From assembly GCA_964549735.1 (NCBI GenBank), contig CAZJWO010000003.1:4829-68828 (forward strand): a stretch of DNA of 64,000 nucleotides. The letters are read 5' to 3'. The notes under the pieces were generated by a model that was not told the DNA's origin, made no database searches, and worked only from the letters and a program-made list of their open reading frames with translations. Positions 6,844 to 32,286 of this stretch are shown in pieces. The number at the start of each line of letters is the position of its first letter. Position 1 is the stretch's first letter. The position numbers and the translations under genes were made by a program. The stretch is from an uncultured Fibrobacteraceae bacterium. GTDB taxonomy: Bacteria; Krumholzibacteriota; Krumholzibacteriia; LZORAL124-64-63.

Positions 6844-8382
<1,539 letters not shown>

Positions 8383-8386
<4 letters not shown>

Positions 8387-11025: not shown

Positions 11026-11201
11026 ATTCACTTGTGCTCGTTATCTGCAACTGCAACCCCGATAAGTGCGCATGTAACCGACTGTGACGTAAAGACATAA
11101 GAATAAATCCATAGAATCCCGCCTATTTGCTGCAACTCCTCCGGAGGGTGAAGGGCCGTGCACGACGCGCAGCCCCATCACCCAACCCGCGAGGAGACAC
11201 A

Positions 11202-11528: not shown

Positions 11529-11713
11529 GACAAGGGGCCGGCCGCCCCAACGCAATCCCTGACTAATCGTCACCAGACATTCAACCGGCCACGAGGTGGA
11601 GGTGCATGTGGGTGTCGCCGTAACGGCGAACCACGTGCGCTTCCACCGCGCCGGTCTATGCGCTGCCTCGTGCGACACCTTCGCGCCTCTCCGCGGCCTC
11701 AGGAGAGGTTCCG

Positions 11714-12337
11714 ATGGAGAACACGAAGCAGCGCATCCTCGACGGATACGCCCGAGACGTCATTCGCCACAAAGCCAGGCAACTGATCGGCAAGTACGGA
11801 TTCACCCGCGACGACTTCGACGACCTGCAGCAGGAGATGATGCTGGACCTGCTGCGCCGCCTCGGCAAGTACGACCCCAGCAAGGCGGGCCTCAGCACCT
11901 TCGTGGCCCGCATCGTCGACCGCAAGGTCTCCACCCTGATCCGCCACCAGCGGCAAGAGAAGCGCGACTACCGTCGGCCGGTCTGCTCGCTGGATGCGCA
12001 GGTCGAGGACCAGGACGGCCAGGCGCGGGGGCTCGACGAGGTCCTCAGCCAGGATGCCTTCGACGATGAGGTCGCACGGCACGATCGGCCACAGGCCGAG
12101 CGCCTGGACCTGAGACTCGATCTCTCGCTGGTGCTCGACGAGTTGCCCGAAGATCTGCGGCAACTCGCCCTCCGCCTGCAGACCCGGACCGTGGCCGAGA
12201 TCGCCCGCGAGTTGGGCGTGCCGCGCAGCACGCTCTACGAGAAGAGCATCGCCCGCCTGCGGAAGATCTTCGAGGACAAGGGGCTGCGCGAATACCTGGG
12301 CGAGGCCCGACACCCCGGCAAGGGACCGGGTAAGTAA
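11714..12337 (+). CDS. Sigma-70 family (ECF-like) RNA polymerase sigma factor, phage-encoded
   Basis: Region-2-like FTRDDFDDLQQEMMLDLLRRLGKYDP...STFVARIVDRKV and a region-4 HTH (TVAEIARELGVPRSTLYEKSIARLRKI). Confidence 0.7.
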   Translation: MENTKQRILDGYARDVIRHKARQLIGKYGFTRDDFDDLQQEMMLDLLRRLGKYDPSKAGLSTFVARIVDRKVSTLIRHQRQEKRDYRRPVCSLDAQVEDQDGQARGLDEVLSQDAFDDEVARHDRPQAERLDLRLDLSLVLDELPEDLRQLALRLQTRTVAEIARELGVPRSTLYEKSIARLRKIFEDKGLREYLGEARHPGKGPGK

Positions 12338-12381: not shown

Positions 12382-12687
12382 ATGAATCGAGAAGTCCACC
12401 GCTACGAGTTCGAGGCCTCGGTGCCCGCGGACGAGATCGAAAGCACGCTGCTTCTGGCCGTGCTCGCGGTCGAGGGTCTGCACGGCACCTCGCGGGTGCG
12501 GCTCGACGCGAAGTACTGCATCGACACCGAAAAGCACGCCTGCGTGATCGACGCCGACACCGTCGTCGGCCAGGACATCAGCCGCATCTTCACGGGCTTC
12601 GCCATCCGCGAGTTCGGCGAGGAGGCCTTCACGGTCGGCCGCGCCGAACGCATGCCCAAGACCGAAACGGAGGACCTGAGCGCATGA
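12382..12687 (+). CDS. Hypothetical protein
   Basis: 101-aa ORF. Its stop overlaps the start of the downstream nuclease gene. Confidence 0.45.
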   Translation: MNREVHRYEFEASVPADEIESTLLLAVLAVEGLHGTSRVRLDAKYCIDTEKHACVIDADTVVGQDISRIFTGFAIREFGEEAFTVGRAERMPKTETEDLSA

Positions 12688-13511
12688 ACCTGCCCGGAGT
12701 ATTCAAACGACGCGAGTGGAGCGTCCAGGACCTGATCCGCGAACCTGCCGACGTCTACCACGCCAAGGCCGGCGAGTATCTCTCCAGCCACATGCTGGCC
12801 GAGTTCCGCCGCAACCCTCTGCTCTTCCACAAGAAGGAACTCGGTCTGATCGAGGATCAGGACCGGCCGGCGTACGTCCTCGGCCGGGCCGCCCATGTTC
12901 TGATCCTCGAGGGTCGGGAAGCCTACGAGCAGGCCTACGCATTCGGTGGACCGATCAACCCCAGGACGGGCCAGCCGTTCGGCAGCCGCACCAAGGCATT
13001 CCGCGAGTGGGCGGAAGCCCAGGGCAAGCCCGTGCTCGATGACGACCAGGCAGCTCTAGTCGAGAACCTGAACACGTCGGTGCAGGCCCACGAGCATGCC
13101 TCGAACCTGCTGGCCGACGGCATCGCCGAGGGTGTGATCCGTGCCGAGTACTGCGGCCTGCCGTGCCAGGCGCGCCTGGACTGGCTGAACCCCGAGCGCG
13201 GGATCGTCGACCTGAAGACCTGCGACAACCTCGACTGGCTCCAGATGGACGCACGCAGCTACGGCTACGTCTACCAGCTGGCCTTCTACCGGTCCCTGGC
13301 TGCCACGCTCACCGGCGAGCGGCTTCCCGTCTACATGATCGCTGTGGAGAAACGCGAACCGTTGCGGACGGGCGTCTGGCGCATGAGCGAGGAGGTCCTC
13401 GGTCTCGCCCAGAAGGAGAACGAAGAAGCCATCGCGCGCCTGATCGCCTGCCGTGAGAAGGACGAGTGGCTCACCGGCTACGAGGACATCCGCACCTACG
13501 ACCTGATCTGA
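12684..13511 (+). CDS. PD-(D/E)XK family nuclease (phage exonuclease, RecB/Cas4-like fold)
   Basis: Motifs ...RLDWLNPERGIVDLKTCD... (D...D/E-x-K) and YVYQLAFY (QxxxY). Typical partner of Sak4/SSB recombination modules. Confidence 0.65.
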   Translation: MNLPGVFKRREWSVQDLIREPADVYHAKAGEYLSSHMLAEFRRNPLLFHKKELGLIEDQDRPAYVLGRAAHVLILEGREAYEQAYAFGGPINPRTGQPFGSRTKAFREWAEAQGKPVLDDDQAALVENLNTSVQAHEHASNLLADGIAEGVIRAEYCGLPCQARLDWLNPERGIVDLKTCDNLDWLQMDARSYGYVYQLAFYRSLAATLTGERLPVYMIAVEKREPLRTGVWRMSEEVLGLAQKENEEAIARLIACREKDEWLTGYEDIRTYDLI

Positions 13512-13619: not shown

Positions 13620-14402
13620 GTGAAACTCTTGCAGCAAGTCACCACAGGCCGGAGCCCGGCACCGAGGCGGGTGATGCTCTACGGCACCCATGGCATCGGC
13701 AAGTCCACCTTCGCCTCGTGCGCGCCGGCCCCGGTGTTCATCCAGACCGAGGACGGCCTCGGCGAGATCGACTGCGCCAAGTTCCCGGTCACCACGACGT
13801 TCGATGAGGCCATGCAGGCCCTGTCGGAGCTGTACACCGACGAGCACTCCTATCGAACCGTCGTGGTCGATTCGCTGGACTGGCTGGAGCGGCTGATCTG
13901 GGCCGACGTCTGCCGTCGCCGCAACGTCGAGAGCATCGAGGACATCGGCTACGCCAAGGGTTACGTGTTCGCCCTGACGCAGTGGCGCGAGTTCCTCGAC
14001 GGCCTGGCGGCACTGCGCGGCGAGAAGGGCATGACGACGATCCTGATCGCCCACGCCCGCATCGAACGCTTCGAGAACCCCGAGACGGAATCCTACGACC
14101 GCTACGTGCCGCGCCTGCACCGCCTGGCTTCCCAGGTCCTGCAGGAGTGGTGCGACGAGGTCATGTTCGCCACGTTCAAGGTCTACACCAAGCAGACCGA
14201 CGAGGGCTTCGACCGCAAGCGCAACCAGGGCATCGGCACTGGCGAGCGAGTCCTGCGCACCGTCGAGCGCCCCTCCCACGTGGCCAAGAACCGTCTCGCC
14301 CTTCCCGAAGAGATGCCTCTGGCCTGGAATGTCTACGCCCAGCACATCCACCCCGAACCTGTCAGCGCGCCCCAGAGCGGCAAGACCAAAGGAGCCAAGT
14401 AG
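13620..14402 (+). CDS. Sak4-like AAA/RecA-fold ATPase (phage single-strand annealing / recombination)
   Basis: Walker A (LYGTHGIGKST). GTG start. Size ~260 aa. Followed by DUF669 and RusA. Confidence 0.65.
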   Translation: MKLLQQVTTGRSPAPRRVMLYGTHGIGKSTFASCAPAPVFIQTEDGLGEIDCAKFPVTTTFDEAMQALSELYTDEHSYRTVVVDSLDWLERLIWADVCRRRNVESIEDIGYAKGYVFALTQWREFLDGLAALRGEKGMTTILIAHARIERFENPETESYDRYVPRLHRLASQVLQEWCDEVMFATFKVYTKQTDEGFDRKRNQGIGTGERVLRTVERPSHVAKNRLALPEEMPLAWNVYAQHIHPEPVSAPQSGKTKGAK

Positions 14403-14860: not shown

Positions 14861-15210
14861 TCGAGGTCGAGCTCCCGTTCCCCCCGTCGGTGAACCACTA
14901 CTACCGGCGGGTCGGCCCCCGGACGCTCATCAGCCGCGAGGGGCGCAGGTTCCGTGAACGGGTCTGCGCCACGCTCGCCCGCCTCGGGATCGAGCGTTTG
15001 GAAGGGCCGCTGCACCTGGAGATCGAGGTGTACCCGCCGGACCGGCAGCGCAGGGATATCGACAACGTTCAGAAGGCGCTCCTGGACGCCCTCCAGCACG
15101 GCGGTCTGTACGCCGACGATAGCCAGATCAAGAAGCTGAACATCGAGATGCGCGGGCGCGTCCGCGGCGGCCGTACCCTCGTGCGCTTGGAGGAACTCGC
15201 CGATGCTTGA
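14857..15210 (+). CDS. rusA: RusA-family Holliday junction resolvase
   Basis: 117 aa, MIEVELPFPPSVNHYYRR...DIDNVQKALLDAL...D. ATGA overlap with the upstream gene. Confidence 0.75.
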   Translation: MIEVELPFPPSVNHYYRRVGPRTLISREGRRFRERVCATLARLGIERLEGPLHLEIEVYPPDRQRRDIDNVQKALLDALQHGGLYADDSQIKKLNIEMRGRVRGGRTLVRLEELADA

Positions 15211-16924
15211 ACTGAGGCCGTACCAGCAAGCGTCGGTGGACGCGATCTACCGTCACCTCAGAGAACGGGACGACAACCCGTGCGTGGTGATCCCCACCGG
15301 CGGCGGCAAGACACCCGTCATGGCCACGGTCTGCCGCGACGCGGTGGGCCGGTGGGGCGGCCGGGTCCTGATCCTGGCTCACGTGAAGGAGTTGCTGGAG
15401 CAGGCGCTGGAGAAGATCCAGATCGTGGCGCCCGAGATGTGGATGAAGACCGGGCTCTACTCGGCCGGGCTGAAGAGCCGCGACACAGAGCACCCGATCA
15501 TCATCGCCGGCATCCAGTCGGTGTACAGGCGGGCCTGCGAACTCGACGCATTCGACCTGGTGATCATCGACGAGGCCCACATGATCCCGCCCGATGGCGA
15601 TGGGATGTACCGGACCTTCCTCGACGACGCCAGGAAGGTGAACCCGAATCTGCGGGTGATCGGCCTGACCGCGACGCCGTTCCGGATGAAGAGCGGGATG
15701 ATCTGCGAGCCCGGCAACGTCCTGAACGAGGTCTGCTACGAGATCGGCGTGAAGGAACTGATCGTCCAGGGCTACCTCTGCCCGTTGGTGACCAAGGGGG
15801 CGGCCCAACCGTTGGACACCTCGAGCCTGCACGTGCGCGCGGGCGAGTTCATCGCCAGTGAGGCCGAGGAGTTGATGGACACCGACGAACTCGTGGAGTC
15901 GGCCTGTCGGGAGATCGTCGAGCAGGCGCAGGCGCGCCGGTCGGTGCTCGTGTTCACCACCGGTATCCGGCACGCGGAGCACGTCGCCGCGGTGCTGGGC
16001 CGGATGGCGAGCGAGCCCGTGGCCACGGTGTTCGGCGAGACGGCGAGCGAGGAGCGCGACCGGGTCCTGGCTCAGTTCAAAGAGGGTCGGATCAAGTACC
16101 TGGTCAATGTCAACGTGCTCACCACTGGGTTCGACGCCCCGAACATCGACTGCGTGGCCATGATGCGGCCGACGCTGTCCCCGGGCCTCTACTACCAGAT
16201 GGTCGGGCGGGGCTTCCGTCTGTGCGAGGGGAAGGAGAACTGCCTGGTTCTGGACTTCGGCGGCAACGTGCTGCGGCACGGGCCGGTCGACGCCATCCGG
16301 GTCCGGGAGGTCCACCACCGTGCGGGCGGCGAGGCGCCGGCCAAGCAGTGCCCCGTGTGCAGGAGCCTGATCGCCACCGGCTATACTGTCTGCCCTGACT
16401 GCGGCTACGAGTTCCCACCGCCGGAACGGCAACAGCACGACGCCACAGCATCCACCGAGGGCATCCTGTCGGGCGAGGTCGCGACGTCGGTCCACGAGGT
16501 CCGCGAGGTCTTCTACAGTGTCCACACGAAGAAGGGCGCGCCGGAGGATGCGCCCAAGACGCTGCGGGTCGAGTACGAGGTGGGGTTCCACCAGTACTAC
16601 AGCGAGTGGATCTGCTTCGAGCACGGCGGCTGGGCCCGCCACAAGGCCGAGTCGTGGTGGCGGAAGCGGTCGAACGCTCCGGTGCCGCTGACGGCGGCCG
16701 AGGCCGCGGCCCTGGCCCAGGACGGAGCCCTCTGCGAGACCGGCACCATCACCGTGCGGACGGTGGTCGGGGAGCAGTTCCCGCAGATCGTGGGCTACGA
16801 GCTGGGCGACCGGCCGCCATGGCGGGAGCCCGGGATGGATGATGTCCTCGAGCCGGTGGGCGCGATGGTCGAGGGCGGCGTGCGGGTGTACGACCCGCAC
16901 GATGACGACGATCTACCCTTCTGA
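15203..16924 (+). CDS. SF2 DEAD/DEAH-box helicase (phage replication helicase) with C-terminal Cys4 zinc finger
   Basis: Walker A (TGGGKT), DEAH box (IIDEAHM), helicase C-terminal motifs. CPVCRSL...CPDCGYEF. Confidence 0.8.
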   Translation: MLELRPYQQASVDAIYRHLRERDDNPCVVIPTGGGKTPVMATVCRDAVGRWGGRVLILAHVKELLEQALEKIQIVAPEMWMKTGLYSAGLKSRDTEHPIIIAGIQSVYRRACELDAFDLVIIDEAHMIPPDGDGMYRTFLDDARKVNPNLRVIGLTATPFRMKSGMICEPGNVLNEVCYEIGVKELIVQGYLCPLVTKGAAQPLDTSSLHVRAGEFIASEAEELMDTDELVESACREIVEQAQARRSVLVFTTGIRHAEHVAAVLGRMASEPVATVFGETASEERDRVLAQFKEGRIKYLVNVNVLTTGFDAPNIDCVAMMRPTLSPGLYYQMVGRGFRLCEGKENCLVLDFGGNVLRHGPVDAIRVREVHHRAGGEAPAKQCPVCRSLIATGYTVCPDCGYEFPPPERQQHDATASTEGILSGEVATSVHEVREVFYSVHTKKGAPEDAPKTLRVEYEVGFHQYYSEWICFEHGGWARHKAESWWRKRSNAPVPLTAAEAAALAQDGALCETGTITVRTVVGEQFPQIVGYELGDRPPWREPGMDDVLEPVGAMVEGGVRVYDPHDDDDLPF

Positions 16925-16926: not shown

Positions 16927-19080
16927 GTGAATCGGGTGTGTATGGGCGATCCCAAGACGACAATGCTGCAGGCCGCGTTGAGGTATGCGGAGCTCGGATA
17001 CCCGGTCTTTCCGTGCGTTTCGGGCGGGAAGGCCCCCGCGACGGCCCATGGCTTCCTGGACGCCACGACGGACGCCGGGCAGATTGAAGCCTGGTGGACG
17101 GCGCGGCCGGACTCGAACATCGGCATGCCGACCGCAGGCCTTCTGGTCGTTGACGTCGACGGGGCCGAGAACCCCTGGCCAGGCGGTGACCGGGAGGGAA
17201 TGACCAACTGCCCGGTGTCGCTGACTCCTCGCGGCGGTCGGCACCACGTCTTCCGGCAGCCACCGGGCAAAGCATGGAGCAGTACGGCGAGTCGGCTCGC
17301 GCCGAAGGTCGACACCCGGGCCAACGGCGGCTACATCGTCCTGCCGCCCTCGGCGGTGGGCGGGAAACCGTACAAATGGGCCGGGGGATTCGAGACCGCC
17401 CCGGCCGACCTGCCCGAACCCCCCGCGTGGCTCGTGGCGCAGGTTGAGGGAGGGACGGACCTCTTTGAACAGGCGACGGGCGTGGCCACAGTGGGCGGGC
17501 CAGTCGCGCCCCAGGACGCGCCCGTGGCGCCCCAGTGCGCGCCGGCGGCCACCGGTGGCAATGTGATACCAGCCGGGCACAGGAACGCCACGTTGGCGCG
17601 CCTGGGCGGGGCCATGCGCCGGGTTGGGATGAGCCAGGCGGAGATCCTGGCTGCCCTGGCCCGGGCCAACGAGGACCGCTGCAACCCACCGCTCAAGGAC
17701 CGCGAAGTCGAGCGGATCGCGGCGAGCATCGCCCGGTACGAGCCCGATCAGGTGGCCGTCGCGGTGGCGGAGAACCACTGGGGGCAGGACAACGACGAAG
17801 CTCCGGAAGACGAAGTGCCCCAGGATGTCCAGGACCCGGGGCCGATGCCGGACGAGCTGTTCAGGATCCCCGGTTTCGTGTCCGAGGTCATGGACCACTG
17901 CCTGGACACGGCCCCGTATCCGAACCTGGTGATGAGCTTCGCCGGGGCTCTGGCACTGCAGGCGACGCTTGCCGGCCGGAAGGTCCGCGACCCCGGGAAC
18001 AACCGGACGAACCTCTATCTGTTGGGTCTGGCGCACTCGGCAGCCGGCAAGGACAGGCCTCGGAAGCTCAACACCGAGATCCTGCACGCGGTCGGGCTGT
18101 CGCACCAACTCGGAGGACGGTTCGCTTCGGGTGAGGGCATCCAGGATGCCCTCTTCAGCGAGCCTTGCATGCTGTTCCAGACCGACGAGATCGACGGCAT
18201 GCTGCAGTCGATCAACAAGGCCCGCGATGCCCGCCACGAGAACATCATGGGCGCGATGCTGACGATCTATTCGTCGGCCGACTCAGTGTTTCCCATGCGC
18301 CGCAAGGCCGGCCGGGATGCCCCTGGGGCCATCGACCAGCCGTGCCTCGTGGTGTTCGGGACCGCCATCCCGAAGCACTACTACGAGGCACTTTCCGACC
18401 GAATGCTGACCAATGGGTTCTTCGCCCGCATGATCATCCTCGACTGCGGAGGGCGATCGCCAGGGCAGGAGCCGAAGCTCAAGCCCTTGCCGGATCGGGT
18501 TCTCGAGACTGCGCAGTGGTGGGCGGACTTTCAGCCCGGGACAGGCAACCTCGAGAACTGGCACCCGGAACCACGAGTCATCCAACACACGGACGAGGCG
18601 AAGGAGATCCTGGTCGAGATGCGCCTCGAGGCGGAGGCCGAGTACGCGCGGGCCGAGACTGTGGAGGACGAGGCCGGTACGACGGTCTGGGGGCGAGTCA
18701 GCGAGCACGCGAGAAAGCTCGCCCTTCTCTACGCGATCAGCGAGAACCACATCGAGCCGAAGATCGGCGCTGAGGCTGTCGAGTGGGCACGGCGATTCGT
18801 CACGCACCAGGCCCGGCGCATGCTTTTCATGGCCCAGTCCCACGTAGCGGAGAACCCGTTCCAGGGGGAGTGCTTGAAGTTCCTCAAGAAGCTCGGCGGA
18901 GCACCCGGCGGAGAGCTCGCCCACAGCGTTCTCTTGAAGCGGATGAAGGTCGACGCCAAGACCTTCCAGGGGCTCGTGACTACTCTCGAACAGCGCGGAG
19001 ATATCATCACCAGGACCTCCTGCGCGCGCGGCACCACGGCGCGCTTCTACCGGTTGGTGAGCCGCCGTCCCGAGCGGTGA
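16927..19080 (+). CDS. Bifunctional primase-polymerase (Prim-Pol N-terminal domain) with a large C-terminal replication-associated domain
   Basis: N-terminal ...YAELGYPVFPCVSGGKAP...GLLVVDVDG... (Prim-Pol signature). 717 aa. Confidence 0.7.
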   Translation: MNRVCMGDPKTTMLQAALRYAELGYPVFPCVSGGKAPATAHGFLDATTDAGQIEAWWTARPDSNIGMPTAGLLVVDVDGAENPWPGGDREGMTNCPVSLTPRGGRHHVFRQPPGKAWSSTASRLAPKVDTRANGGYIVLPPSAVGGKPYKWAGGFETAPADLPEPPAWLVAQVEGGTDLFEQATGVATVGGPVAPQDAPVAPQCAPAATGGNVIPAGHRNATLARLGGAMRRVGMSQAEILAALARANEDRCNPPLKDREVERIAASIARYEPDQVAVAVAENHWGQDNDEAPEDEVPQDVQDPGPMPDELFRIPGFVSEVMDHCLDTAPYPNLVMSFAGALALQATLAGRKVRDPGNNRTNLYLLGLAHSAAGKDRPRKLNTEILHAVGLSHQLGGRFASGEGIQDALFSEPCMLFQTDEIDGMLQSINKARDARHENIMGAMLTIYSSADSVFPMRRKAGRDAPGAIDQPCLVVFGTAIPKHYYEALSDRMLTNGFFARMIILDCGGRSPGQEPKLKPLPDRVLETAQWWADFQPGTGNLENWHPEPRVIQHTDEAKEILVEMRLEAEAEYARAETVEDEAGTTVWGRVSEHARKLALLYAISENHIEPKIGAEAVEWARRFVTHQARRMLFMAQSHVAENPFQGECLKFLKKLGGAPGGELAHSVLLKRMKVDAKTFQGLVTTLEQRGDIITRTSCARGTTARFYRLVSRRPER

Positions 19081-19152
19081 AGAACCCCCGAAGGTGAATC
19101 ACGTCCTGGCTCAGACGCCACAAACCGTTTTCATGCAACCCGTTACAGGTCG

Positions 19153-19330
19153 TTTCACCGTTTCACCCCATCTCGCAGGGGGTGAAAGAGGGTGAAGCGA
19201 GAATGCTGTAACTTATTATATACAAACACACTCTCTCTCCTTTTCCCCTTTCACCCACCCCCGCGCATATTCCTCTCCGTCTCCGCGCGCGTATATGAGA
19301 CCCCGGGGGTGAAAGGTGAAAAAGGTGAAA
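19153..19330. repeat. Iteron-like cluster: >=8 copies of GGTGAAA / TTTCACC in both orientations around an AT-rich core (putative phage replication origin or partition site)
   Basis: GTTTCACCGTTTCACCCC; GGGGGTGAAAGAGGGTGAAGCG; TTATTATATACAAACACAC; CCCCTTTCACCC; GGGGGTGAAAGGTGAAAAAGGTGAAACGG. Confidence 0.6.
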
Positions 19331-19344
19331 CGGCGGAATCCGGG

Positions 19345-19980
19345 TTAGGGATGCTCACTGCCCGATGCGGACAGAATGCTGTAACCGGCTTTGTTGACGG
19401 CGGCCTCGATGGTGTCGGGGTCGACGACGGCATTACCGCCGACACTGACCACGGCCGATCTGTCCTCGTAGGACACTTTCGCGCCGATCACTCCGGGAAC
19501 ATCGGCCAGGGCCTTCGTGAGGATGCCTGCGCATCCTTCACACGTCATCCCGCCGATCGCCAGATGGAGGGTTCGGACTTCGCCGGTCACCGGTTGGCCG
19601 AGCTCCGATGATGCTCCCCCGACGACAAGCCCGACATAGCTGGGGAAGAATGCAAACGCCACGACGAATACGGTTGCGATCCAAAGCATGATGCGATTGA
19701 AACGCTGAAGGCGGGGCCGGGGTGTGGCGCACATCGAGCCAGGAGCACATCGCTCCTTGCGGAAGTAGTTGAAGTAGAAACCGGTCGCCAGCAAGAAGGT
19801 CGCCATGGCTAGGAAGACCAGGCGGTACTTCTCGAAGAACGAGGCGACTCCGACCGCCGAGGCCCCGAAGGCGATCAGGGCGAGCGGCAGCCAGCAGCAG
19901 GCCGATGATGCGATGGCCGAGACCACGGAGCCCACCGTGGCGAAAACGCCCAAGCGCTGGGATGTCCCGGAGGCGTTCAT
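19345..19980 (-). CDS. merT: MerT-MerP fusion: mercuric/heavy-metal transporter (CC motif in TM1, cytoplasmic Cys pair) fused to a C-terminal HMA domain (GMTCEGC)
   Basis: SAIASSACCWLPLALIAFG (MerT TM1 signature); ...CAPGSMCATP...; C-terminal LAIGGMTCEGCAGILTKALADVPGVIGAKVSY. Start set at MNASGTS (ATGA overlap with the upstream gene). The annotated longer N-terminus is Arg-rich junk. Confidence 0.75.
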   Translation of the reverse strand: MNASGTSQRLGVFATVGSVVSAIASSACCWLPLALIAFGASAVGVASFFEKYRLVFLAMATFLLATGFYFNYFRKERCAPGSMCATPRPRLQRFNRIMLWIATVFVVAFAFFPSYVGLVVGGASSELGQPVTGEVRTLHLAIGGMTCEGCAGILTKALADVPGVIGAKVSYEDRSAVVSVGGNAVVDPDTIEAAVNKAGYSILSASGSEHP

Positions 19981-20282
19981 GCGGTTGCCTGTTCCCGGAT
20001 GGCATCCTCGATCATCTGCCGTGGGGGCGTGCCGGAACTCCCGTACATCCGGCAGCCGTAGGCATAATCGGTACGCGACCGAACTGCAGGATCGGCATCG
20101 ATGCCGTTGATCTGCACCGACGGCGAGCCGAAGAAGCGGTGCCGGTGCGCCTGCTCGGGGTCGTTCACTTCGACGGTGGTGACGGCTGCGTCGACGCCCA
20201 GTTCCGACACCACCTGCTCCACGATCTCCATCGTGGGGAGAAAATTCGGGCATCCTTCGAAATAGAGCACTTCGATCTTCAT
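19977..20282 (-). CDS. Small thioredoxin-fold protein (MKIEVLYFEGCPN...) in a mer-like operon
   Basis: ~101 aa. Cys in FEGCPN plus a later YGCRMYG. Positioned between merR and merTP with 4-nt overlaps on both sides. Confidence 0.55.
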   Translation of the reverse strand: MKIEVLYFEGCPNFLPTMEIVEQVVSELGVDAAVTTVEVNDPEQAHRHRFFGSPSVQINGIDADPAVRSRTDYAYGCRMYGSSGTPPRQMIEDAIREQATA

Positions 20283-20710
20283 GTTCTCTCCTCCTCGAGA
20301 GCTTCCAGAATTGGACATTCACTGGCGGGCCCGGAGCCGTGGCAAGAGGCGGCAAGCATCGCGAGAGCGCGTTTCATGCGCTTGAGTTCGCGGATCCGCT
20401 CCTCGATGCCGGCGATCTTCGTTTCCGCTCGGGCTTTGACATCGGCGCAAGTCGTATTGGTGTCCACCCGCAGCGCGAGCAGATCCGCGATCTCGTTCAG
20501 GGTGAACCCCAGATCCTTCGCGCGCCGGATGAACATGACCCTGGCTACGGTATCGGCCGGGTACTCCCGATAGCCGGAACTGTTGCGCGGCGGTTCCTTG
20601 AGCAGCCCCGAGCGTTCGTAGAAACGGATGGTTTCGACGCCGACTCCGGCTTGTTTCGCGACCTGGCCAATGGTGAACACGCTCACGGTAATCTCCTCGT
20701 CAATGGACAA
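20279..20710 (-). CDS. merR: MerR-family metal-responsive transcriptional regulator (Hg/heavy-metal type, three conserved Cys)
   Basis: N-terminal HTH FTIGQVAKQAGVGVETIRFYERSGLL. Coiled-coil dimerisation region. Cys at ~86, ~121, ~130 (TTCADV, ASCHG, ECP). Confidence 0.8.
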   Translation of the reverse strand: MSIDEEITVSVFTIGQVAKQAGVGVETIRFYERSGLLKEPPRNSSGYREYPADTVARVMFIRRAKDLGFTLNEIADLLALRVDTNTTCADVKARAETKIAGIEERIRELKRMKRALAMLAASCHGSGPASECPILEALEEERT

Positions 20711-20715
20711 GATAC

Positions 20716-20737
20716 ACCCTGTACCATACTACAGGGT
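20716..20737. promoter_or_regulatory. Perfect dyad ACCCTGTA-N6-TACAGGGT immediately upstream of merR, flanked by TTGACC (-35-like) on the minus strand: MerR-type operator/promoter
   Basis: Seen directly in sequence. On the minus strand it reads TTGACC-ctgtagtatggtacagggtg-TATCTT (long-spacer promoter with internal dyad). Confidence 0.55.
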
Positions 20738-20882
20738 CAAGGGGCAAACAGGAGAAAATCGCAACTATATCAATTGGGGGCGGTCAGTCTTGGAAGTGGG
20801 TGGGGGGGATATATCCGTTCCTGAAGCCGACAGACCCCTCGCATCGCCGAGAGGTCGTCGGTTCATAGCGGGTTCCAGCGAG

Positions 20883-21137
20883 CTAGGCTTCGGTCTGGAC
20901 CTCCTTCATGATCGCCCGCACCGCCGCATCGTCCTTCCGCGCAGCGGCCACCAGAAGACTGCGAGCGAACTTCGAGGCCTTCCCCGGTCCGGCCGCCTTG
21001 TGGATGTCGTTCCGCTCCTCCTCGGTCAGCCGGAAGGCGAACACGCAGAGTTCCTCGCGCGGGGCCTTGGCTTTGGAGGCGGGTTTCTCGGCCGCAGGCT
21101 TGCGGGCCCGCGTGGTCTTCTTGGTCGTCTTGGCCAT
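20883..21137 (-). CDS. Ribbon-helix-helix (CopG/MobC-like) DNA-binding protein with Lys-rich N-terminal tail
   Basis: ...ELCVFAFRLTEEERNDIHKAAGPGKASKFARSLLVAAA.... Confidence 0.5.
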   Translation of the reverse strand: MAKTTKKTTRARKPAAEKPASKAKAPREELCVFAFRLTEEERNDIHKAAGPGKASKFARSLLVAAARKDDAAVRAIMKEVQTEA

Positions 21138-21140
21138 CGG

Positions 21141-21392
21141 TCAGTTCCTTTCGCTCGGGTCCAGACGCGCGATCCGGCTGGGCTCCTTGCCGCAGCCTTC
21201 GCACGCCACTCGCCCGCCCTGGCGGTCGATCTCCGCCATGTCAGCGGGCGTGATCTCTTCCCACCGTTCCCAGATCCAGGTGTCGGACCCGGGATAGGGG
21301 ATGTGGCAGCAGGCGCAGACGATGCTGCCCCGCTCGTTCCAGAACACCTGGTGGGCCTTCAGGCCGAATCGCGGGGTCGCGTTCTTCGCCAT
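21141..21392 (-). CDS. Small Cys-rich (zinc-finger-like) hypothetical protein
   Basis: CACCH...CEGCGKE motifs. 83 aa. Confidence 0.45.
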   Translation of the reverse strand: MAKNATPRFGLKAHQVFWNERGSIVCACCHIPYPGSDTWIWERWEEITPADMAEIDRQGGRVACEGCGKEPSRIARLDPSERN

Positions 21393-21393
21393 G

Positions 21394-21720
21394 TCAGTCC
21401 ACCTCCCGCGGGATATCCGCCGCGAACACCAGCGTCCCGTCAGCGCCGTAGATCTCGACGCGGTCGATCCTGGTGTCGGGGTTCTCGCGGCCGGCGCGCA
21501 GGATGGCCTGGCTGGCCCGCATGGCGGTCAACCGCCCGTAGGCTTCGAGGCGTGCCTCCTGCCGGTCGGTGAACAGGGTCGGGTTCTCGTCGATCTGGAG
21601 TCCGCCCCGGAACTGCAACTCGAGGTCGCGGAGCGAGGCCTCGAACACGAGATCCTCGAGCGTGCTGTTCGGCTTCGGGTCGACTACGACCCAGAACTTG
21701 TCGTCAGGTCCGTAGCGCAT
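21394..21720 (-). CDS. Hypothetical protein
   Basis: 108-aa ORF coupled to its neighbours. Confidence 0.45.
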   Translation of the reverse strand: MRYGPDDKFWVVVDPKPNSTLEDLVFEASLRDLELQFRGGLQIDENPTLFTDRQEARLEAYGRLTAMRASQAILRAGRENPDTRIDRVEIYGADGTLVFAADIPREVD

Positions 21721-22109: not shown

Positions 22110-23960
22110 TTACCCCCGCCAGCCATCGATCCACCCCCGGGGGCGTCGCACAGGCATCGACGGCTCGGACTCGGCCGCCGCCTGGACCTCTCGCTGGTGG
22201 GCCAGGGCCGCCGCTCGCTCGGGCAGAGACTTCACGAACGCGGGGCCGAGGATATAGAGGGCCGCCAGGCAATAGACCTCGAGGTCGAGGGCCTCGTTGC
22301 GGTCGCGGGTCTTGATCCACTCACGGACCGTGCCACGGTTCTTCACCCACTTGCGGATGGCCTTCTCCGCGGTCAGCTGGGCGATGTACTCTTCGTCAGT
22401 CCATTCGGGGAGGTGGCAGTAGCCGGGGCCCGGCGACCCGATGCGTAAACGCGAGTAGACGATCTCCTTGCCTGTGTCCACGCAGAGGGTGAACAGCTTC
22501 GCGCGGTACCGGTTGTGAGTAGATGGGCGACCGACCAGGGGCTTGCCTCGCTCGGAACCGCCGCGGACAGCGAACACGCGCCGGTCGATCCTGGCACGGC
22601 AGAACCGGTAGACCTGCTCGGAGTGGTGTCCGCCGCTGTCGACGGCGACGCAGGAGATCGGGACCTTCTGCCCGCTCTCGTGGGCGAACTCGGTTCGCAG
22701 GAAGCGGTCGAGGTCGAGCCAGACCTGGTCGCGCCCCGGATCACCGTGGAACTGGGAGAACGCGACGAGCCAGGACTCCTCCGACGCGCCGTATCCCTTT
22801 ACAGCGCACTCGAGCCGGTCGCCCTGGACATCGACCGAGGCTACGAGCACGCCCACGCCGTTGGGTACCTCGGCTTCGTATCGCTCCGCCCGGGCCAGCA
22901 GGCTGTCCGGGTCGACGGTCTCTCCGCGCTCCTCCCAGGTCTCTCCGAGTACGCTGTTGACCCAGTTCTTCAGCTTGAGGGGGTTCTCCTTGGCCTCCCG
23001 GAACTCGGTGACGGTGGCCGACCACGGGAGCCAGCCCAACGGCGAGTAGAGGCTGGACAGATGAAACCCGATCGTCTCGCCGGTGCCCTTGGCGGTGGGG
23101 CGCCACTGGCCGGATGCGAGCATCTGCGGCTTGAATCGTTCCTCGATCAGGACACCGCAGTTCACGCAGGCCAGAGCCGCGGTCTTGGGGTCATCGTCAC
23201 GCCACCGGATGTTCTCCCACCGCATCCAGTCGAAGTTGCCGCATTCGGGGCAGGGGACGAAGTACCGCCGCTGATCCGAGGCCAGGAATTCCCGCTCGAT
23301 CCGGGAGATGCCCTTGATCGTGGGTGTCGAGACCAGGAACACCTTGCGGCGCGAGTACAGTGGCCCAGTGGTGCGCTTCTCCGCCAGTGCGATCGGATCG
23401 CCCTGGCCGTCGACATCGCCCGGGTACTCGTCGATCTCGTCGCAGAAGAGCCAGCGGATCGGCATCGATTTGACGCCGGTCGCGGAGTTGGAGCCCGTCA
23501 GGAACAGCACGCCGCCGGGGAATTCCTTGATCAGGAGGCTGTTGCCGCCGTCTCGGGACCGCGCCTCGCGGACAAGCTCGTGCAGCACCGGCGTAGTGGC
23601 GATCATGGGATCGAGGCGCTGCCGACTGAACCGCCGGGCTTCGTCCACGGTGGGGCGCAGGACCAGGATCGGCCCAGGTGCGTGGTGCATCACGTAGCCG
23701 AGCCAGTTGTTGCCGGCCTCGGTGCCACCGAGCTGCGAGCCCTTCATGAAGACGACCCGGCGAGCCGGCGACCGCGGACCCAGGGCGTCCATGATCTCGC
23801 GCAGGTAGGGCGTCGTGTCCGTGTGCCAGTGGACAGCAGCATGGCCCGAGCGGTTGCCTAGCACGCGGTGTTCGTCGGCCCATTCGCTGACCGTCAGCCG
23901 CGGCTCCGGCCGCCATCCCGCCCGATAGGCGGCTTCGTAGACGTCACGGCCGTTCTGCAT
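22110..23960 (-). CDS. Phage terminase large subunit, GpA (lambda) family
   Basis: 616 aa. N-terminal ...LTVSEWADEHRVLGNRSGHAAVHWHTDTTPYLREIMDAL...KGSQLGGTEAGNNW... matches GpA-type terminases. Confidence 0.85.
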   Translation of the reverse strand: MQNGRDVYEAAYRAGWRPEPRLTVSEWADEHRVLGNRSGHAAVHWHTDTTPYLREIMDALGPRSPARRVVFMKGSQLGGTEAGNNWLGYVMHHAPGPILVLRPTVDEARRFSRQRLDPMIATTPVLHELVREARSRDGGNSLLIKEFPGGVLFLTGSNSATGVKSMPIRWLFCDEIDEYPGDVDGQGDPIALAEKRTTGPLYSRRKVFLVSTPTIKGISRIEREFLASDQRRYFVPCPECGNFDWMRWENIRWRDDDPKTAALACVNCGVLIEERFKPQMLASGQWRPTAKGTGETIGFHLSSLYSPLGWLPWSATVTEFREAKENPLKLKNWVNSVLGETWEERGETVDPDSLLARAERYEAEVPNGVGVLVASVDVQGDRLECAVKGYGASEESWLVAFSQFHGDPGRDQVWLDLDRFLRTEFAHESGQKVPISCVAVDSGGHHSEQVYRFCRARIDRRVFAVRGGSERGKPLVGRPSTHNRYRAKLFTLCVDTGKEIVYSRLRIGSPGPGYCHLPEWTDEEYIAQLTAEKAIRKWVKNRGTVREWIKTRDRNEALDLEVYCLAALYILGPAFVKSLPERAAALAHQREVQAAAESEPSMPVRRPRGWIDGWRG

Positions 23961-24507
23961 CCGCGATCTCCTGGCAGATCCGTTCGATTTCTTCCTCGAG
24001 GATGCGCTGGACCTCGGCGGGTTCCTGGACGGCGGCCAGGACGGTGGCGAGACGCTCGGGCAGGGCGATCAGCTGGTCGCGCGCCTTGCGGGCCATGTTG
24101 AACGCGCCGAGGCGGACCTCGTCGGCGGGGACGAGTGCACCGCGCCGGCGATCCAGCTCGAGCTTGGCCAGCTGCGCCTGGTACAACTCGCGAGCGGCGC
24201 GGGCTTTGGCGTAGCCGGTGGCTGTGGATGGCGCACCGATGGTCTCGTCGGCCGAGCCCAGGTCCATGGGTTCAGACGGCTCGCCCGGTGTCTTGGCTTG
24301 CTTTGGGTTGCCGGTGATCCGGTTGCGGGGCTTGCTCTGGTCGGTGTTCTGCTGCCACTCCTGGTCGGCAACGACAGGGTCGATTTTCCCGTTCACAGTC
24401 GAGATCCGGCCCGCCTTGATGGCGCGCTGAACTGCGACGTGGGTGACGCCACGCCGACGGGCGTACTCCCGTTGGGAGATCAGCTCCTTCTTCGCTTCCC
24501 TGACCAC
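23944..24507 (-). CDS. Phage terminase small subunit (HTH, Nu1/P27-like)
   Basis: N-terminal HTH ISQREYARRRGVTHVAVQRAIKAGRI. Overlaps the terL start. Acidic coiled-coil C-terminus. Confidence 0.6.
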   Translation of the reverse strand: MVREAKKELISQREYARRRGVTHVAVQRAIKAGRISTVNGKIDPVVADQEWQQNTDQSKPRNRITGNPKQAKTPGEPSEPMDLGSADETIGAPSTATGYAKARAARELYQAQLAKLELDRRRGALVPADEVRLGAFNMARKARDQLIALPERLATVLAAVQEPAEVQRILEEEIERICQEIADAERP

Positions 24508-24510: not shown

Positions 24511-26007
24511 CTATCCATCCTGGTCGGCCCTGCGGTCGGCGGCGATCTCGTCGAAGGCCCGGCCGTCGCCGTCCAGGATGGCCTTCTGGCCGGTGGCTTC
24601 CTGCCAGCGCATCACGATCACGTCCGTGTACGCGGGATCGAGTTCCATGAGGAAGGCATGGCGGCCGGTTTGCTCCGCTCCCATCAGGGTCGAGCCGCTG
24701 CCGCCGAACAGGTCGAGCACGTTCTGGCCGGGCTTCGACGAGTACTGGATGGCCCGCACGGCCAACTCGACCGGCTTCTCGGTCAGGTGGACCATGCTCT
24801 GTGGGTTGACCTTCTTGACCGCCCAGACGTCGACGGCGTTGGTGGGGCCGTAGAACTTGTGGCCGGCTCCTTCGCGCCAGCCGTAGAACGCCCACTCGTG
24901 GTTGCCCATGTAGTCTTTGCGGGTGAGCACGGGGTGCTCCTTCACCCAGATGACCGCCTGGCTGAAGTACAGGCCGCAGGCCTTCAGCACCGGAGGGTAG
25001 TTGGCGCAGTTGGCGTAGCCGCCCCAGATGTAGAACGAGTGCCCCGGCTGCAGCACGCGGGCGATGTTCCCGAACCACGCCAGGAGCATCTCGTCGAAGG
25101 CCTCGTCCGTGACGAAGTCGTTGGCCAGTGGGCGGTCCTTGGGGCGCATCTTCCCGGTGGCCTTCGACTTGGTCTTGTGCCGCGCGAGGTCGAAACCCTG
25201 GTGGTGCATGCCTTTCGCATCGGAGGCCTCGACGGCGCTCTTGGTGGACGGCGGGAAGCTGGACAAGCCGGCGGCAATGGCGTTGTTGGACCGCGGTTCG
25301 ACCTTCACGTTGTAGGGAGGGTCGGTGTTCACGAGGTGGATCTTCTCGCCGCCCAGCAGTCGGTCGACGGCGGCAGAGTCGCAGCTGTCGCCGCACAGTA
25401 GGCGGTGGTTGCCAAGGACCCACAGGTCGCCAAGGCGACTCGTAGGCTCCTCAGGCGGCTCGGGGGCGGCGACCTCCTCCGGGATCTCCTCGTCGAGCAG
25501 GGTGTTGAGTTCGTCCAGGTCGAAGCCGGTCAGCTCGAGGTTGAAGTCGAGATCCTCGAGTGCCTTCAACTCCTCGGACAGCAGATCCTCATCCCAGCCG
25601 GCGTCCAGCGCGAGCCGGTTGTCGGCGATGACGTAGGCCCGCTTCTGGGCCTCGGTCAGGTGGGTGAGCTCGATCACCGGGACCGTGGTCATGCCCAGCT
25701 CGCGGGCCGCCAGCAGCCGACCGTGGCCCGCGATGATGCCGGCCTCGCCGTCGACCAGGATCGGGTTGGTCCACCCGAACTCGAGCAGGCTGGCCGCGAT
25801 CTTGGTGACCTGCTCGGCGCTGTGGGTCCGCGGGTTTCGCTCGTAGGGGCGGAGCCGGTCGATGTTCCAGTGTTCCAGTTTCCCGGGCAGTCTCACGGGA
25901 GACTCGGCACGCGCGGAATCGTCCGTAGGGGCCGTTTCGGGCGCGTCTGAGGCCTTCTTCGATTTACCAGCACTGGAACGTTTGGTGTCGGTGGTAACTT
26001 GTTTCAT
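24511..26007 (-). CDS. ParB-like nuclease domain fused to a DNA N6/N4 methyltransferase (phage anti-restriction/orphan MTase)
   Basis: ParB-N motif (...RNPRTHSAEQV...GHGRLLAAREL...) followed by DPPY (VNTDPPYNV) and SAM-binding motifs. Confidence 0.8.
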   Translation of the reverse strand: MKQVTTDTKRSSAGKSKKASDAPETAPTDDSARAESPVRLPGKLEHWNIDRLRPYERNPRTHSAEQVTKIAASLLEFGWTNPILVDGEAGIIAGHGRLLAARELGMTTVPVIELTHLTEAQKRAYVIADNRLALDAGWDEDLLSEELKALEDLDFNLELTGFDLDELNTLLDEEIPEEVAAPEPPEEPTSRLGDLWVLGNHRLLCGDSCDSAAVDRLLGGEKIHLVNTDPPYNVKVEPRSNNAIAAGLSSFPPSTKSAVEASDAKGMHHQGFDLARHKTKSKATGKMRPKDRPLANDFVTDEAFDEMLLAWFGNIARVLQPGHSFYIWGGYANCANYPPVLKACGLYFSQAVIWVKEHPVLTRKDYMGNHEWAFYGWREGAGHKFYGPTNAVDVWAVKKVNPQSMVHLTEKPVELAVRAIQYSSKPGQNVLDLFGGSGSTLMGAEQTGRHAFLMELDPAYTDVIVMRWQEATGQKAILDGDGRAFDEIAADRRADQDG

Positions 26008-26135: not shown

Positions 26136-26801
26136 TCACAGACCCTGCCCCTTCGACCTCGCAATGGCGTTGAGGACTTCCTTCTCCATCTCCTCACGGA
26201 ACCAGCGGTCGGACTCCTTCTTGGCCGTCTCGACGAACCGCAGCCGCGGTTTGAGCTTCTTGCCGCTCGAGAAGAAATAGACCAGGCGCGAGGCCGCAGG
26301 CCCTGTGCGCTGGAAGATGCCGACCTCGGGCACGAGGTAGGTCTTGGTGCGCGTGACCCCGACGCGACGACGGCCGGTCTTGGTGAGATCGAAGCGGAGA
26401 CGGCGGACGCGCAGCTCGGGCGGGACGGGCTGCGTGAACCGCGGGCGGGCGGGTCCGCCGACCACGGGCTCGGCCACGCGTCGTGCCCCCTGCGTGGACG
26501 GTTTGCGTTCGGCACCACGCTCGAAGGCGGAAAGCAGGAGGCGGGGCTTCTGTCCGACCCCGATCTCGGCGTAGGACCGGCCCTGTTTCACGTTGGCGAA
26601 GGGCTTGATGACCGCGGCCTGGCGGAGGATGAACTCCTTCTTGCGGATCGTGAACTCATCCTCGACGCGCCGACGTTCGGCGGCCTGGATCCGCTTTGCC
26701 GTGTTGTTGATGGCGTTGACGACGGCATAGGCCAGCCGGCGCTGTCCGTTCTGCAGGCGCAGGACCAGCGGGGCGGAGTCGATCTGCAGGTCGATCCTCA
26801 T
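26136..26801 (-). CDS. Hypothetical phage protein
   Basis: Start set at MRIDLQID. The annotated N-terminal extension is Arg/Pro-rich junk. Confidence 0.45.
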   Translation of the reverse strand: MRIDLQIDSAPLVLRLQNGQRRLAYAVVNAINNTAKRIQAAERRRVEDEFTIRKKEFILRQAAVIKPFANVKQGRSYAEIGVGQKPRLLLSAFERGAERKPSTQGARRVAEPVVGGPARPRFTQPVPPELRVRRLRFDLTKTGRRRVGVTRTKTYLVPEVGIFQRTGPAASRLVYFFSSGKKLKPRLRFVETAKKESDRWFREEMEKEVLNAIARSKGQGL

Positions 26802-27106
26802 CGCGGCCCTCCAGAGTCGCCCCCGGACTGCTTGACCTGCTGGCTGTGCTGGTAGATGGCCTCGAGGGTGAGGCGGCCCCGGGACATCTCGACGAGGGCC
26901 ATGGCGCGAGCTGGGCTGGGTGCATGGCCCTGGAGCCACTCGTAGACAGCCTGGTTCGTGACGCGTAGGTCGGGATCGTAGGCCAGGCCGGCGACGATGC
27001 GAGGCACACCGAAATCGGCCACCCAGCGGCCGAACTCGGTCTGCCAGCGATCGGGGGCGCGCTTGAACCTGCCGCGTTCAAGCGCTTCGTCGCGGAACAT
27101 CGTCAC
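26798..27106 (-). CDS. Hypothetical phage protein
   Basis: 102-aa ORF. Confidence 0.45.
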   Translation of the reverse strand: MTMFRDEALERGRFKRAPDRWQTEFGRWVADFGVPRIVAGLAYDPDLRVTNQAVYEWLQGHAPSPARAMALVEMSRGRLTLEAIYQHSQQVKQSGGDSGGPR

Positions 27107-27205: not shown

Positions 27206-27811
27206 CTAGCGCGAAGCGGCTCTCTCTTGCGCGGCATCCTTGAGAATCTCGAGCGCTTCTCGTGTCACGTAGAGCCCGATGCCGAAACCCACAACGAGAT
27301 CTGGATAGCGCGAGCCGGTAACGAATACCAACATGGCCGCGACCAGAACGGCCACGTTGGCGACCACGTCGGCGCGGGTGAAGATCCAGGTGGCGCGGAG
27401 ATGGACCTCGCCGTTGCGGTGCTTGGAGAGCAACCGAAGGACGATGGTGTTCACCACGAGGGCCGGAATGGCCAGAGCGGCCATGATCAGACTCTCCGGT
27501 TCGCTCCCGGTGATGGCTCGGGCGATGACGGCCACGCAAGCACCGAGGCCGAGCAGGAGGAGTATGGCGCCGCTGACTGTCGCCGCGCGCGCCTTGAAGA
27601 GCGATCCGCGGCTCACGGCCGCGATGGCGATCGCGTAGGCGGAAGCGTCGGCGAGCATGTCCAGAGAGTCCGCGATGAGTCCAGACGATTCACCAATGAC
27701 CCCGCCGATCATTTCGACCACGAACATCCCTGCGTTCAAGGCCAGGGCGAGACGGAGGGTCCTGCCCGCCTCGACAGAGGTCACCTCTGCGTGGCATCCA
27801 CAATCACTCAT
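27206..27811 (-). CDS. Cation diffusion facilitator-like membrane protein (TM domain only, ~200 aa)
   Basis: N-terminal CGCH. 5-6 TM helices with the CDF signature (SLIADSLDMLAD). Confidence 0.65.
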   Translation of the reverse strand: MSDCGCHAEVTSVEAGRTLRLALALNAGMFVVEMIGGVIGESSGLIADSLDMLADASAYAIAIAAVSRGSLFKARAATVSGAILLLLGLGACVAVIARAITGSEPESLIMAALAIPALVVNTIVLRLLSKHRNGEVHLRATWIFTRADVVANVAVLVAAMLVFVTGSRYPDLVVGFGIGLYVTREALEILKDAAQERAASR

Positions 27812-27871
27812 TCGAGCCGCTCCTCATGGACCGCGGTGCTATTCTGGTAAACATGGGGGTGAAGGCCCGGA

Positions 27872-28777: not shown

Positions 28778-28807
28778 TCCTGCTACCTCTTGTCGCGGCG
28801 CCTGCTG

Positions 28808-32265: not shown

Positions 32266-32286
32266 GTCAGACTCTCCGTTCTCCGA

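Follow-up and report, generated by a model that had tools for sequence, protein, structure and literature searches.

What does an apparent mercury importer do when no mercuric reductase accompanies it? This question is raised by a short block of mer-like genes found in a prophage within the 64-kb stretch of DNA analyzed here (64,000 nucleotides of contig CAZJWO010000003.1 from an uncultured Fibrobacteraceae bacterium; referred to below as the window). Expression of MerT and MerP without the mercuric reductase MerA sensitizes E. coli to Hg(II) and, to our knowledge, reduction is the sole established end-point of MerT import. The block encodes a MerR-family regulator, a thioredoxin (Trx)-fold protein (DF) and a MerT-HMA fusion protein. 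These parts are all recognizable (NCBI models exist for all three); what is new is a Gram-positive-style mer unit driving a putative reductase-free relay of DF and MerT-HMA on a phage. The analysis described below indicates that the cassette is probably an autoregulated three-gene operon that a temperate phage carries as cargo, with Hg(II) or a similar soft metal as inducer.

The three genes are arranged head-to-tail on the minus strand (19345–20686). The cassette and its control region comprise the following features:

20735–20740, minus strand: −35 box TTGACC (TTGACC, TTTACC or TTGACT in related loci)
20716–20737: predicted MerR operator, a perfect dyad ACCCTGTA-GTATGG-TACAGGGT recognized in the sequence and spanning the promoter spacer
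20709–20714, minus strand: −10 box TATCTT, 20 nt after the −35 box
20279–20686, minus strand: merR, MerR-family metal sensor of 135 amino acids (aa) from GTG at 20686, with ribosome-binding site GAGGAG at 20693–20698
19977–20282, minus strand: DF gene, thioredoxin-fold protein of 101 aa without a signal peptide
19345–19980, minus strand: merTP, MerT-HMA fusion of 211 aa
19081–19344 (264 bp): intergenic operon end, facing the 3′ end of a convergent Prim-Pol gene

Both gene junctions are ATGA overlaps (merR/DF, ACA TGA / ATG AAG; DF/merTP, GCA TGA / ATG AAC). The merR open reading frame (ORF) originally listed (20279–20710) begins with a TTG positioned within the −10 box. The GTG at 20686 is the most probable true start, since it is preceded by GAGGAG and the resulting 135-aa protein equals the gene-caller product in homologous contigs. 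The overall anatomy had been proposed earlier from the letters of this DNA (referred to below as the sequence-only reading), i.e. a three-Cys MerR, a Trx-fold protein and a MerT-HMA fusion encoded on one strand with ATGA overlaps. It was confirmed in every part, including the positions.

The perfect dyad in a long-spacer promoter, also described in that reading, was found at 20716–20737 in a 20-nt spacer. It may be written in 9-4-9 form (ACCCTGTAG-TATG-GTACAGGGT) and is unique in the window, even when three mismatches are allowed (chance expectation 0.09). The −35 box, dyad and −10 box are all kept upstream of merR in six related contigs, and the operators of L002 and L004 show a compensatory double change, one per arm (ACCCCGTA...TACGGGGT). 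Distant members of the window MerR clade have the same operator design with 19–20-nt spacers. The merR promoter of L056 reads TTGACA-CCGTAGTGCGGTACGGGGTG-CATCCT, and the second merR of L030 (Tautonia sociabilis) has the operator TCCGTAC-TTAG-GTACGGG. This second merR, whose product is the closest to the window MerR among chromosomal relatives, opens a region (L030, 6572–10809) that continues with genes for a double-HMA protein and a P1B ATPase with an HMA domain at both ends.

The published firmicute MerR signal has the 9-4-9 form ACCGTGTAC-(4)-GTACAGGGT within a spacer of 20 bp, and the mer genes lie in one operon (Permina et al. 2006, PMC1526738). The other consensus sequences given in the same work are TCCGTAC-(4)-GTACGGA for proteobacterial MerR, ACTCTGGAGTCGACTCCAGAGT for ZntR and ACCTTCCC-(5)-TGGAAGGT for CueR (PMC1526738). 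The window operator agrees with the firmicute Hg-MerR signal at 16 of 18 specified positions, compared with 14 of 22 for the ZntR signal. Thus, the predicted operator and the merR-first gene order are of the firmicute Hg-MerR type, and not of the ZntR, CueR or CadR/PbrR type. The mer operons of Gram-positive bacteria (Bacillus RC607 / S. aureus pI258 type) share with the cassette a leading merR, co-directional genes, the 9-4-9 palindrome and the 20-bp spacer (PMC1526738). The co-directional layout noted in the sequence-only reading is therefore correct as a description, but it is not unusual for mer genes, although it differs from the classical divergent arrangement. The window differs from the Gram-positive operons in lacking merA and merB, in having the DF gene between merR and the transporter gene, and in the transporter being a MerT-HMA fusion.

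The window MerR clears the cut-offs of Pfam MerR, MerR_1 and MerR-DNA-bind (helix-turn-helix plus dimerization helix). Its top matches among solved structures are Hg(II) sensors, namely Bacillus MerR (4ua1, 100.5 bits) and Tn501 MerR (5crl, 98.7 bits), with CueR (83 bits), PbrR (81 bits) and CadR (78 bits) ranking lower. The three Cys residues align with C79/C114/C123 of Bacillus MerR and C82/C117/C126 of Tn501 MerR, and their spacing (35 residues, then x8) is as in Hg-MerR.

The merTP product matches Pfam MerT (PF02411; 43.9 bits, cut-off 32.9; residues 12–113, profile positions 8–109 of 116) followed by Pfam HMA (44.0 bits, cut-off 24.8; residues 140–200, with the motif GMTCEGC). The same order of MerT and an HMA/MerP-like domain characterizes the MerTP fusion family NF033556, which is its best full-length NCBIfam match. 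The MerT part contains SACCWLP in the first transmembrane helix (TM1) and CAPGSMC in a K/R-rich cytoplasmic loop between TM2 and TM3. An alignment of 29 sequences (the window protein, 26 homologues from a protein search, the MerT-HMA of L056 and Tn-type MerT) showed that six Cys residues (C28/C29 of TM1, C78-x5-C84 of the loop and C147/C150 of HMA) are invariant or nearly so, and that the four MerT Cys residues are in register with those of Tn-type MerT. MerT has its N-terminus inside and three helices, so the HMA domain would be periplasmic, like MerP.

MerT-HMA homologues with 68–93% identity are present in metagenomes, and many more distant ones have lengths of 305–369 aa. The lineage was seen in Planctomycetota, Phycisphaerae, Verrucomicrobiota and Acidobacteriota, often with N-terminal DF or zf_CopZ domains. 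In P0043, P0102 and other MerT-HMA proteins of 350–370 aa, a Cys-rich zf_CopZ domain (PF18423) takes the place of DF at the N-terminus; the cytoplasmic accessory domain at this end of MerT-HMA proteins appears to be interchangeable (DF or zf_CopZ).

The product of the middle gene belongs to NCBIfam NF049942, "DF family (seleno)protein" (114.5 bits, cut-off 70; profile positions 1–96 of 96), and barely clears Pfam Thioredoxin_3. An AlphaFold (AF2) model built from 20 homologues (predicted local distance difference test score 94.7) shows a thioredoxin-like beta-alpha-beta-alpha-beta-beta-alpha layout. A Foldseek search with this model against the PDB returned just generic thioredoxin and SelW-like matches (E ~2e-3) and no informative structural relative. 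Alignments identified as invariant Cys11 in GCP, GSP52–54 (the cis-Pro position) and Cys77 in CRxY. Cys11 stands where helix 1 begins, in the canonical position of a Trx active site. The CxxC motif of classical thioredoxins and glutaredoxins is absent: DF has GCPNF with a lone Cys, and the second invariant Cys (residue 77) lies 66 residues further on. In the alignment, F, H, S or Y takes the position of the second Cys of a CxxC. With the N-terminus of MerT in the cytoplasm and no signal peptide on DF, the protein would act at the cytoplasmic face of the transporter. No specific description of the DF family or of a Trx-like mer gene was found in the literature, the nearest being SaoT (preprint 10.1101/2022.07.06.499078).

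The genomic context of DF was examined by a DF profile scan covering one genome per species, which yielded 80 loci; every ORF in them was then searched with profiles. The loci span Planctomycetota, Acidobacteriota, Gaiellales, Myxococcota/Deltaproteobacteria, Eisenbacteria and others. A MerT-like gene is adjacent to or fused with DF in 50 of the 80 loci (in the same ORF in 21), so that homologues of the Trx-like protein, for which the sequence-only reading had suggested a check, do occur in other mer loci. A MerR-like gene is present no more than 1.2 kb upstream of DF in 48 loci and is co-directional with it in 47. Neighbors in the 30 loci without a MerT-like gene include MerR (6), ArsR-type regulators (3) and MerB (2).

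Gene fusions provide a second line of evidence. The DF profile matched 4985 proteins (E ≤1e-3) in a library of 1.84 billion representatives (50% identity). Among the best 150 of these matches, 71 are at least 150 aa long, and these contain MerT (Pfam) in 43 cases, HMA in 38, MerC in two and the MerB N-terminal helix-turn-helix in one. At least 43 of the best 150 DF representatives thus have MerT within the same polypeptide, with DF at the N-terminus of MerT; P0041, P0046, P0015 and P0093 are N-terminal fusions of DF to MerT-HMA. In L085 and L090, DF is fused to a canonical MerT that scores 156–160 bits against the Tn-type protein; MerP comes next, and in L090 MerA fragments as well. Fusions to other mer functions were found in metagenome-assembled genomes (MAGs): a DF-MerB-like lyase domain fusion in a Gaiellaceae MAG (L084, 9836–11077) and a DF-MerC-like membrane domain fusion in a Planctomycetota MAG (L045, 5432–6265). 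DF is a systematic partner of mer genes and not an incidental neighbor.

The absence of a mercuric reductase, reported in the sequence-only reading, was confirmed: a phmmer search with reference MerA against window ORFs of at least 50 aa found no MerA homologue, the only match being the HMA domain of the MerT-HMA fusion. A merA gene on the same transcript immediately outside the window, which that reading had named as a refutation, is ruled out, since the convergent Prim-Pol gene (16927–19080, plus strand) lies directly downstream of merTP. The same situation prevails elsewhere. Among 26 well-flanked MerT-linked DF loci (at least 5 kb on both sides), MerA was found within 10 kb in two and not in the other 24. 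In genomes the module thus most often lacks merA, which is no peculiarity of the window phage. MerA was called with the equivalog TIGR02053 (cut-off 454 bits), and proteins passing it are encoded near the module in four loci:

L051, Gemmata sp. IIL30: MerA, 486 bits, without NmerA
L030, Tautonia sociabilis: MerA, 507 bits, without NmerA
L070, Bryobacter: MerA, 527 bits, without NmerA
L019: MerA, 554 bits, on the opposite strand, ~2.2 kb upstream

NmerA, the N-terminal HMA domain of MerA, is thus lacking in three of the four, whose products are 476–495 aa long. These three loci have the same part order as the window (merR, DF, MerT, HMA), with DF proteins 42–52% identical to that of the window. 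They differ from it in that MerA follows and in that none is phage-borne. DF is fused to MerT in L051 and L030, whereas in L070 it is encoded by a separate gene, as in the window. The merR genes of L051 and L030 belong to another branch of the family than the window merR, and the L070 contig ends just upstream of DF. Flavoproteins of L026, L050 and L076 (~200 bits to MerA) were rejected as MerA because they failed TIGR02053. The one in L076, a Bryobacterales MAG, is a 587-aa FAD oxidoreductase encoded directly after DF (region 9974–12186). L029, whose locus is nearly identical to that of L026, has a counterpart of the L026 protein in the corresponding position (210 versus 206 bits to MerA). 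Given the adjacent MerA in some loci and its absence from most, the module is best placed within mercury biology, though its usual form has no linked reductase.

Besides this scarcity of MerA, several observations weigh against mercury and would favor an alternative in which the cassette senses and traffics another thiophilic metal (Cd, Zn or Pb, or Cu/Ag/Au). The best NCBIfam equivalog of the window MerR is the Hg-MerR model TIGR02051, but its score of 143.9 bits is 7 bits short of the cut-off (150.85). ZntR models score only 6–11 bits lower (NF007069, 137.8 bits against a cut-off of 143), and CueR and CadR-PbrR reach 129 and 105.7 bits, respectively. In a neighbor-joining tree without bootstrap, which included ZntR, PbrR, CueR, Tn501 MerR and Bacillus MerR, the window clade was placed apart from every reference sensor, and therefore also outside the characterized Hg(II) sensors. 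Its members adjoin both MerT-type genes and P1B ATPases. A MerR phylogeny, proposed in the sequence-only reading as a means of separating Hg, Cd, Pb and Cu clades, thus gave the regulator a clade of its own and no metal, and for this reason the operator type and Cys pattern were used for the assignment. The nearest plasmid relative (L095, 60% identical) is annotated by its depositors as Hg(II)-responsive and precedes two P-type (P1B) ATPases, not mer genes; the second merR of L030 likewise precedes a P1B ATPase and not mer genes. The MerT-HMA fusion falls far short of the NF033556 equivalog cut-off (95.6 versus 180 bits) and forms a separate lineage. In L011, a DF-MerT-HMA fusion (9683–10927) is encoded directly downstream of a CsoR-type (Trns_repr_metal) regulator in a copper-like neighborhood: a cupredoxin-family (Copper-bind) gene lies nearby, and the sister contig L012 contains a faint YHS match. 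These two contigs possibly represent a copper-regulated branch of the family. Furthermore, zf_CopZ replaces DF in some family members, and the prophage itself also encodes a CzcA-type RND system and two CDF divalent-cation transporters.

Against this alternative stands, above all, the operator, whose core GTA-N4-TAC within ACCyyGTAs is of the Hg-MerR type and not of the ZntR (CTGGAG), CadR/PbrR or CueR type. The Cys-Cys...His hallmark of ZntR is missing from the regulator, and the only DF family partners of known function are MerT, MerC, MerB and MerA. Moreover, according to established mer logic, a MerR-activated importer is sensible solely for a metal that is detoxified intracellularly. The possibility of another soft metal, already raised in the sequence-only reading, is thereby weakened, yet the sub-threshold Hg-MerR score, the closeness of ZntR and the two MerR relatives beside P-type ATPases leave it a low but appreciable probability. 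On balance, we favor mercury as the metal handled by the cassette, and the window MerR is rather likely to be an Hg(II)-inducible activator.

If mercury is the metal, the cassette might operate as follows. MerR would sit on the dyad within the over-long 20-nt spacer, and metal binding to its three-Cys site would switch on transcription of merR, the DF gene and merTP, the mode of activation known from Gram-positive mer operons. The periplasmic HMA domain of MerT-HMA would capture the metal through its CxxC motif and relay it to the Cys-Cys pair of TM1 and on to the cytoplasmic C-x5-C loop. Cytoplasmic DF (Cys11/Cys77 on a thioredoxin scaffold) would then take the metal from the transporter, as NmerA does for MerA. 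From DF it could pass to a host-encoded MerA core in trans, or be retained on thiols (uptake plus sequestration). What happens after transcription is proposed on the basis of homology, fusion patterns, topology and the conserved Cys residues. The metal specificity, the direction in which the metal moves, DF as its acceptor and the final fate of the metal are likewise proposals. The constant pairing with DF may make a merA-less importer tolerable. Two possibilities offered in the sequence-only reading, a distant merA and metal handling by the Trx-like protein, both gain support.

The proposed role of DF has parallels in known systems. NmerA, like DF in its putative role, is a two-Cys cytoplasmic domain; Ledwidge and colleagues reportedly found in 2005 that it passes Hg(II) obtained from MerT or from thiols of the cell on to the MerA core. 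The two have unrelated folds (ferredoxin-like HMA versus thioredoxin), and DF is free or attached to the transporter, not to the reductase. Engineered bioaccumulation strains combine MerT-MerP import with cytoplasmic metallothionein; as in the module proposed here, a thiol sink in the cytoplasm replaces MerA. Those strains are artificial, and DF, with its one Cys pair, would have a low sink capacity. SaoT of the SAO organometallic system resembles DF in being a small Trx-fold (seleno)protein with unusual Cys/selenocysteine (Sec) motifs. It is encoded together with a MerB-related enzyme and metal transporters, and direct binding of a mercury-like metal species by SaoT has been proposed (preprint 10.1101/2022.07.06.499078). 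SaoT differs from DF in its family (NF040730), its CxxC-type motif, its occurrence in anaerobic Firmicutes and its lack of a MerT partner.

A second alternative concerns DF itself, which might be a thiol-disulfide oxidoreductase that keeps a Cys pair reduced, either the cytoplasmic one of MerT or the C-terminal one of MerA, with the metal passing directly to low-molecular-weight thiols or MerA. The Trx fold, the position of Cys11 at the canonical active site and the conserved cis-Pro motif GSP are all compatible with such an enzyme, and the family name covers selenoproteins, which is usually a pointer to redox chemistry. However, the CxxC motif is lacking, with the second invariant Cys at a distance of 66 residues, Sec also substitutes for metal-binding Cys in MerT-family and HMA proteins (NF045683, NF041115; preprint 10.1101/2022.07.06.499078), and an obligate fusion to the transporter suits a hand-off partner at least equally well. 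We therefore regard the oxidoreductase function as unlikely, though deserving consideration, and retain the metal acceptor as the preferred role of DF.

The cassette is also maintained. Compared with homologues from L002, L008 and L013 (40–86% identical), the ratio of non-synonymous to synonymous substitution rates (dN/dS) is 0.09–0.19 for merR, 0.11–0.23 for the DF gene and 0.10–0.25 for merTP, which indicates that all three genes are kept by selection and do not form a remnant. A functionless, decaying mer remnant that lost merA upon phage capture, as the lack of merA in cis and the low, foreign-looking GC content of the cassette might suggest, is very improbable in view of the three intact and translationally coupled ORFs, the dN/dS values of 0.09–0.25, the operator upheld by compensatory change, and the recurrence of the merA-less trio in several samples and in chromosomes. 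The GC content at third codon positions (GC3) of the cassette genes is ~0.66, as opposed to 0.85–0.92 in the flanking phage genes, which suggests that the cassette was acquired from elsewhere.

The same trio occupies the same phage slot in L001, L003, L006 and L008, bounded by a small-ORF block downstream of the GpA terminase gene on one side and the convergent Prim-Pol/PriCT gene on the other. Next to the L002 cassette are genes for an S24 peptidase protein, a serine recombinase and a DNA methylase. MAGs labeled Fibrobacteraceae or unclassified also contain near-identical cassettes. No MerT-HMA homologues were found in 50,697 deposited phage genomes and no close ones in IMG/VR, and phage carriage of the cassette looks rare. 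Five distant stand-alone DF genes (35–38% identity) were present in IMG/VR contigs L097–L101, with a merR-like gene upstream solely in L101 and MerT in none.

The location of the module within a prophage, claimed in the sequence-only reading, was verified by the recombinase, replication, terminase, tail, capsid and portal genes around it. The principal neighbors are:

6755–8386, plus strand: serine recombinase
12684–13511, plus strand: PDDEXK nuclease
13620–14402, plus strand: AAA_24 protein
15203–16924, plus strand: helicase
16927–19080, plus strand: Prim-Pol
22110–23960, minus strand: TerL (GpA terminase)
23944–24507, minus strand: DUF1441 protein
24511–26007, minus strand: ParB-methylase
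26136–26939, minus strand: minor tail protein
27206–34654, minus strand: metal efflux island
35891–38584, minus strand: tail protein
39755–41134, minus strand: tail assembly protein
43545–46103, minus strand: tape measure protein
49082–51061, minus strand: protease-capsid fusion
51136–53238, plus strand: portal protein (lambda-family)

With Prim-Pol, helicase and recombinase genes to one side, genes for the GpA terminase and for tail, capsid and portal proteins to the other, and the same slot used in related phage contigs, the cassette is prophage cargo (a moron). No PHROGs family was found for DF or for the small ORFs at 20883–21720. The portal gene is divergent from the protease-capsid gene and lies 27 kb from the GpA terminase gene; for a lambda-like head module, this gene order is unusual.

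The region between merTP and Prim-Pol (19081–19344) has no predicted intrinsic terminator. This region contains seven of the 12 exact window copies of the heptamer GGTGAAA/TTTCACC, clustered at 19153–19330 in both orientations between the two stop codons. The heptamer counts are similar in the nearest relatives (seven in L001, eight in L006) and zero in L003, L008 and L002. The cluster could represent iterons, an origin or a protein-binding array.

The efflux island is placed within the tail module of the prophage, between the minor tail protein gene (26136–26939) and the tail protein gene (35891–38584). It encodes two CDF transporters (27206–27811 and 27872–28777), a CusA/CzcA-family RND pump (29143–32265; TIGR00914, 1101 bits versus a cut-off of 701), an adaptor (32287–33408) and an outer-membrane factor (33263–34654). 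The presence of the mer-like cassette and a separate czc/CDF island in one prophage means that the phage has two distinct metal cargo modules. Just left of the serine recombinase gene, a gene at 1541–3937 (minus strand) encodes a P1B ATPase of the copper type that has YHS and HMBD domains at its N-terminus. At the other end of the window, the GC content falls from ~0.67 to 0.49–0.58 across 55000–64000, a region encoding a type II/BREX-like adenine methyltransferase-like protein (55872–58130) and a protein with a type IX secretion system (T9SS) sorting domain (60948–63287); the latter hints at an FCB-group host or another island.

A wider interpretation may tentatively be proposed, which we hold as a possibility and with less assurance than the assignment to mercury. 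DF might be an unrecognized but widespread mercury-handling component, a cytoplasmic Trx-fold protein that accepts Hg(II), docks on MerT, MerC and MerB, and takes the place of NmerA. The merA-less merR-DF-merT(-HMA) modules might then serve MerA-independent import followed by thiol hand-off or sequestration, as the majority form in Planctomycetota, Acidobacteriota and their relatives, mobilized here by a phage alongside czc-type efflux genes. A large survey of mer genes lists one Planctomycetes genome with MerA and makes no mention of a Trx-like protein (PMC8261052).

Surveys of mercury resistance rest on merA and merB, and mercury-handling capacity may therefore be undercounted, given that an apparent Hg(II) sensing and import module without a linked reductase is common in little-studied phyla of soil and water. 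DF would be a new mer accessory, acting either as an acceptor between MerT and MerA or as a sink. The presence of this cassette and a czc/CDF island in one prophage suggests that cargo for metal handling can travel between environmental bacteria in temperate phages. If DF is indeed an Hg acceptor and such modules work independently of MerA, phages could spread them between hosts.

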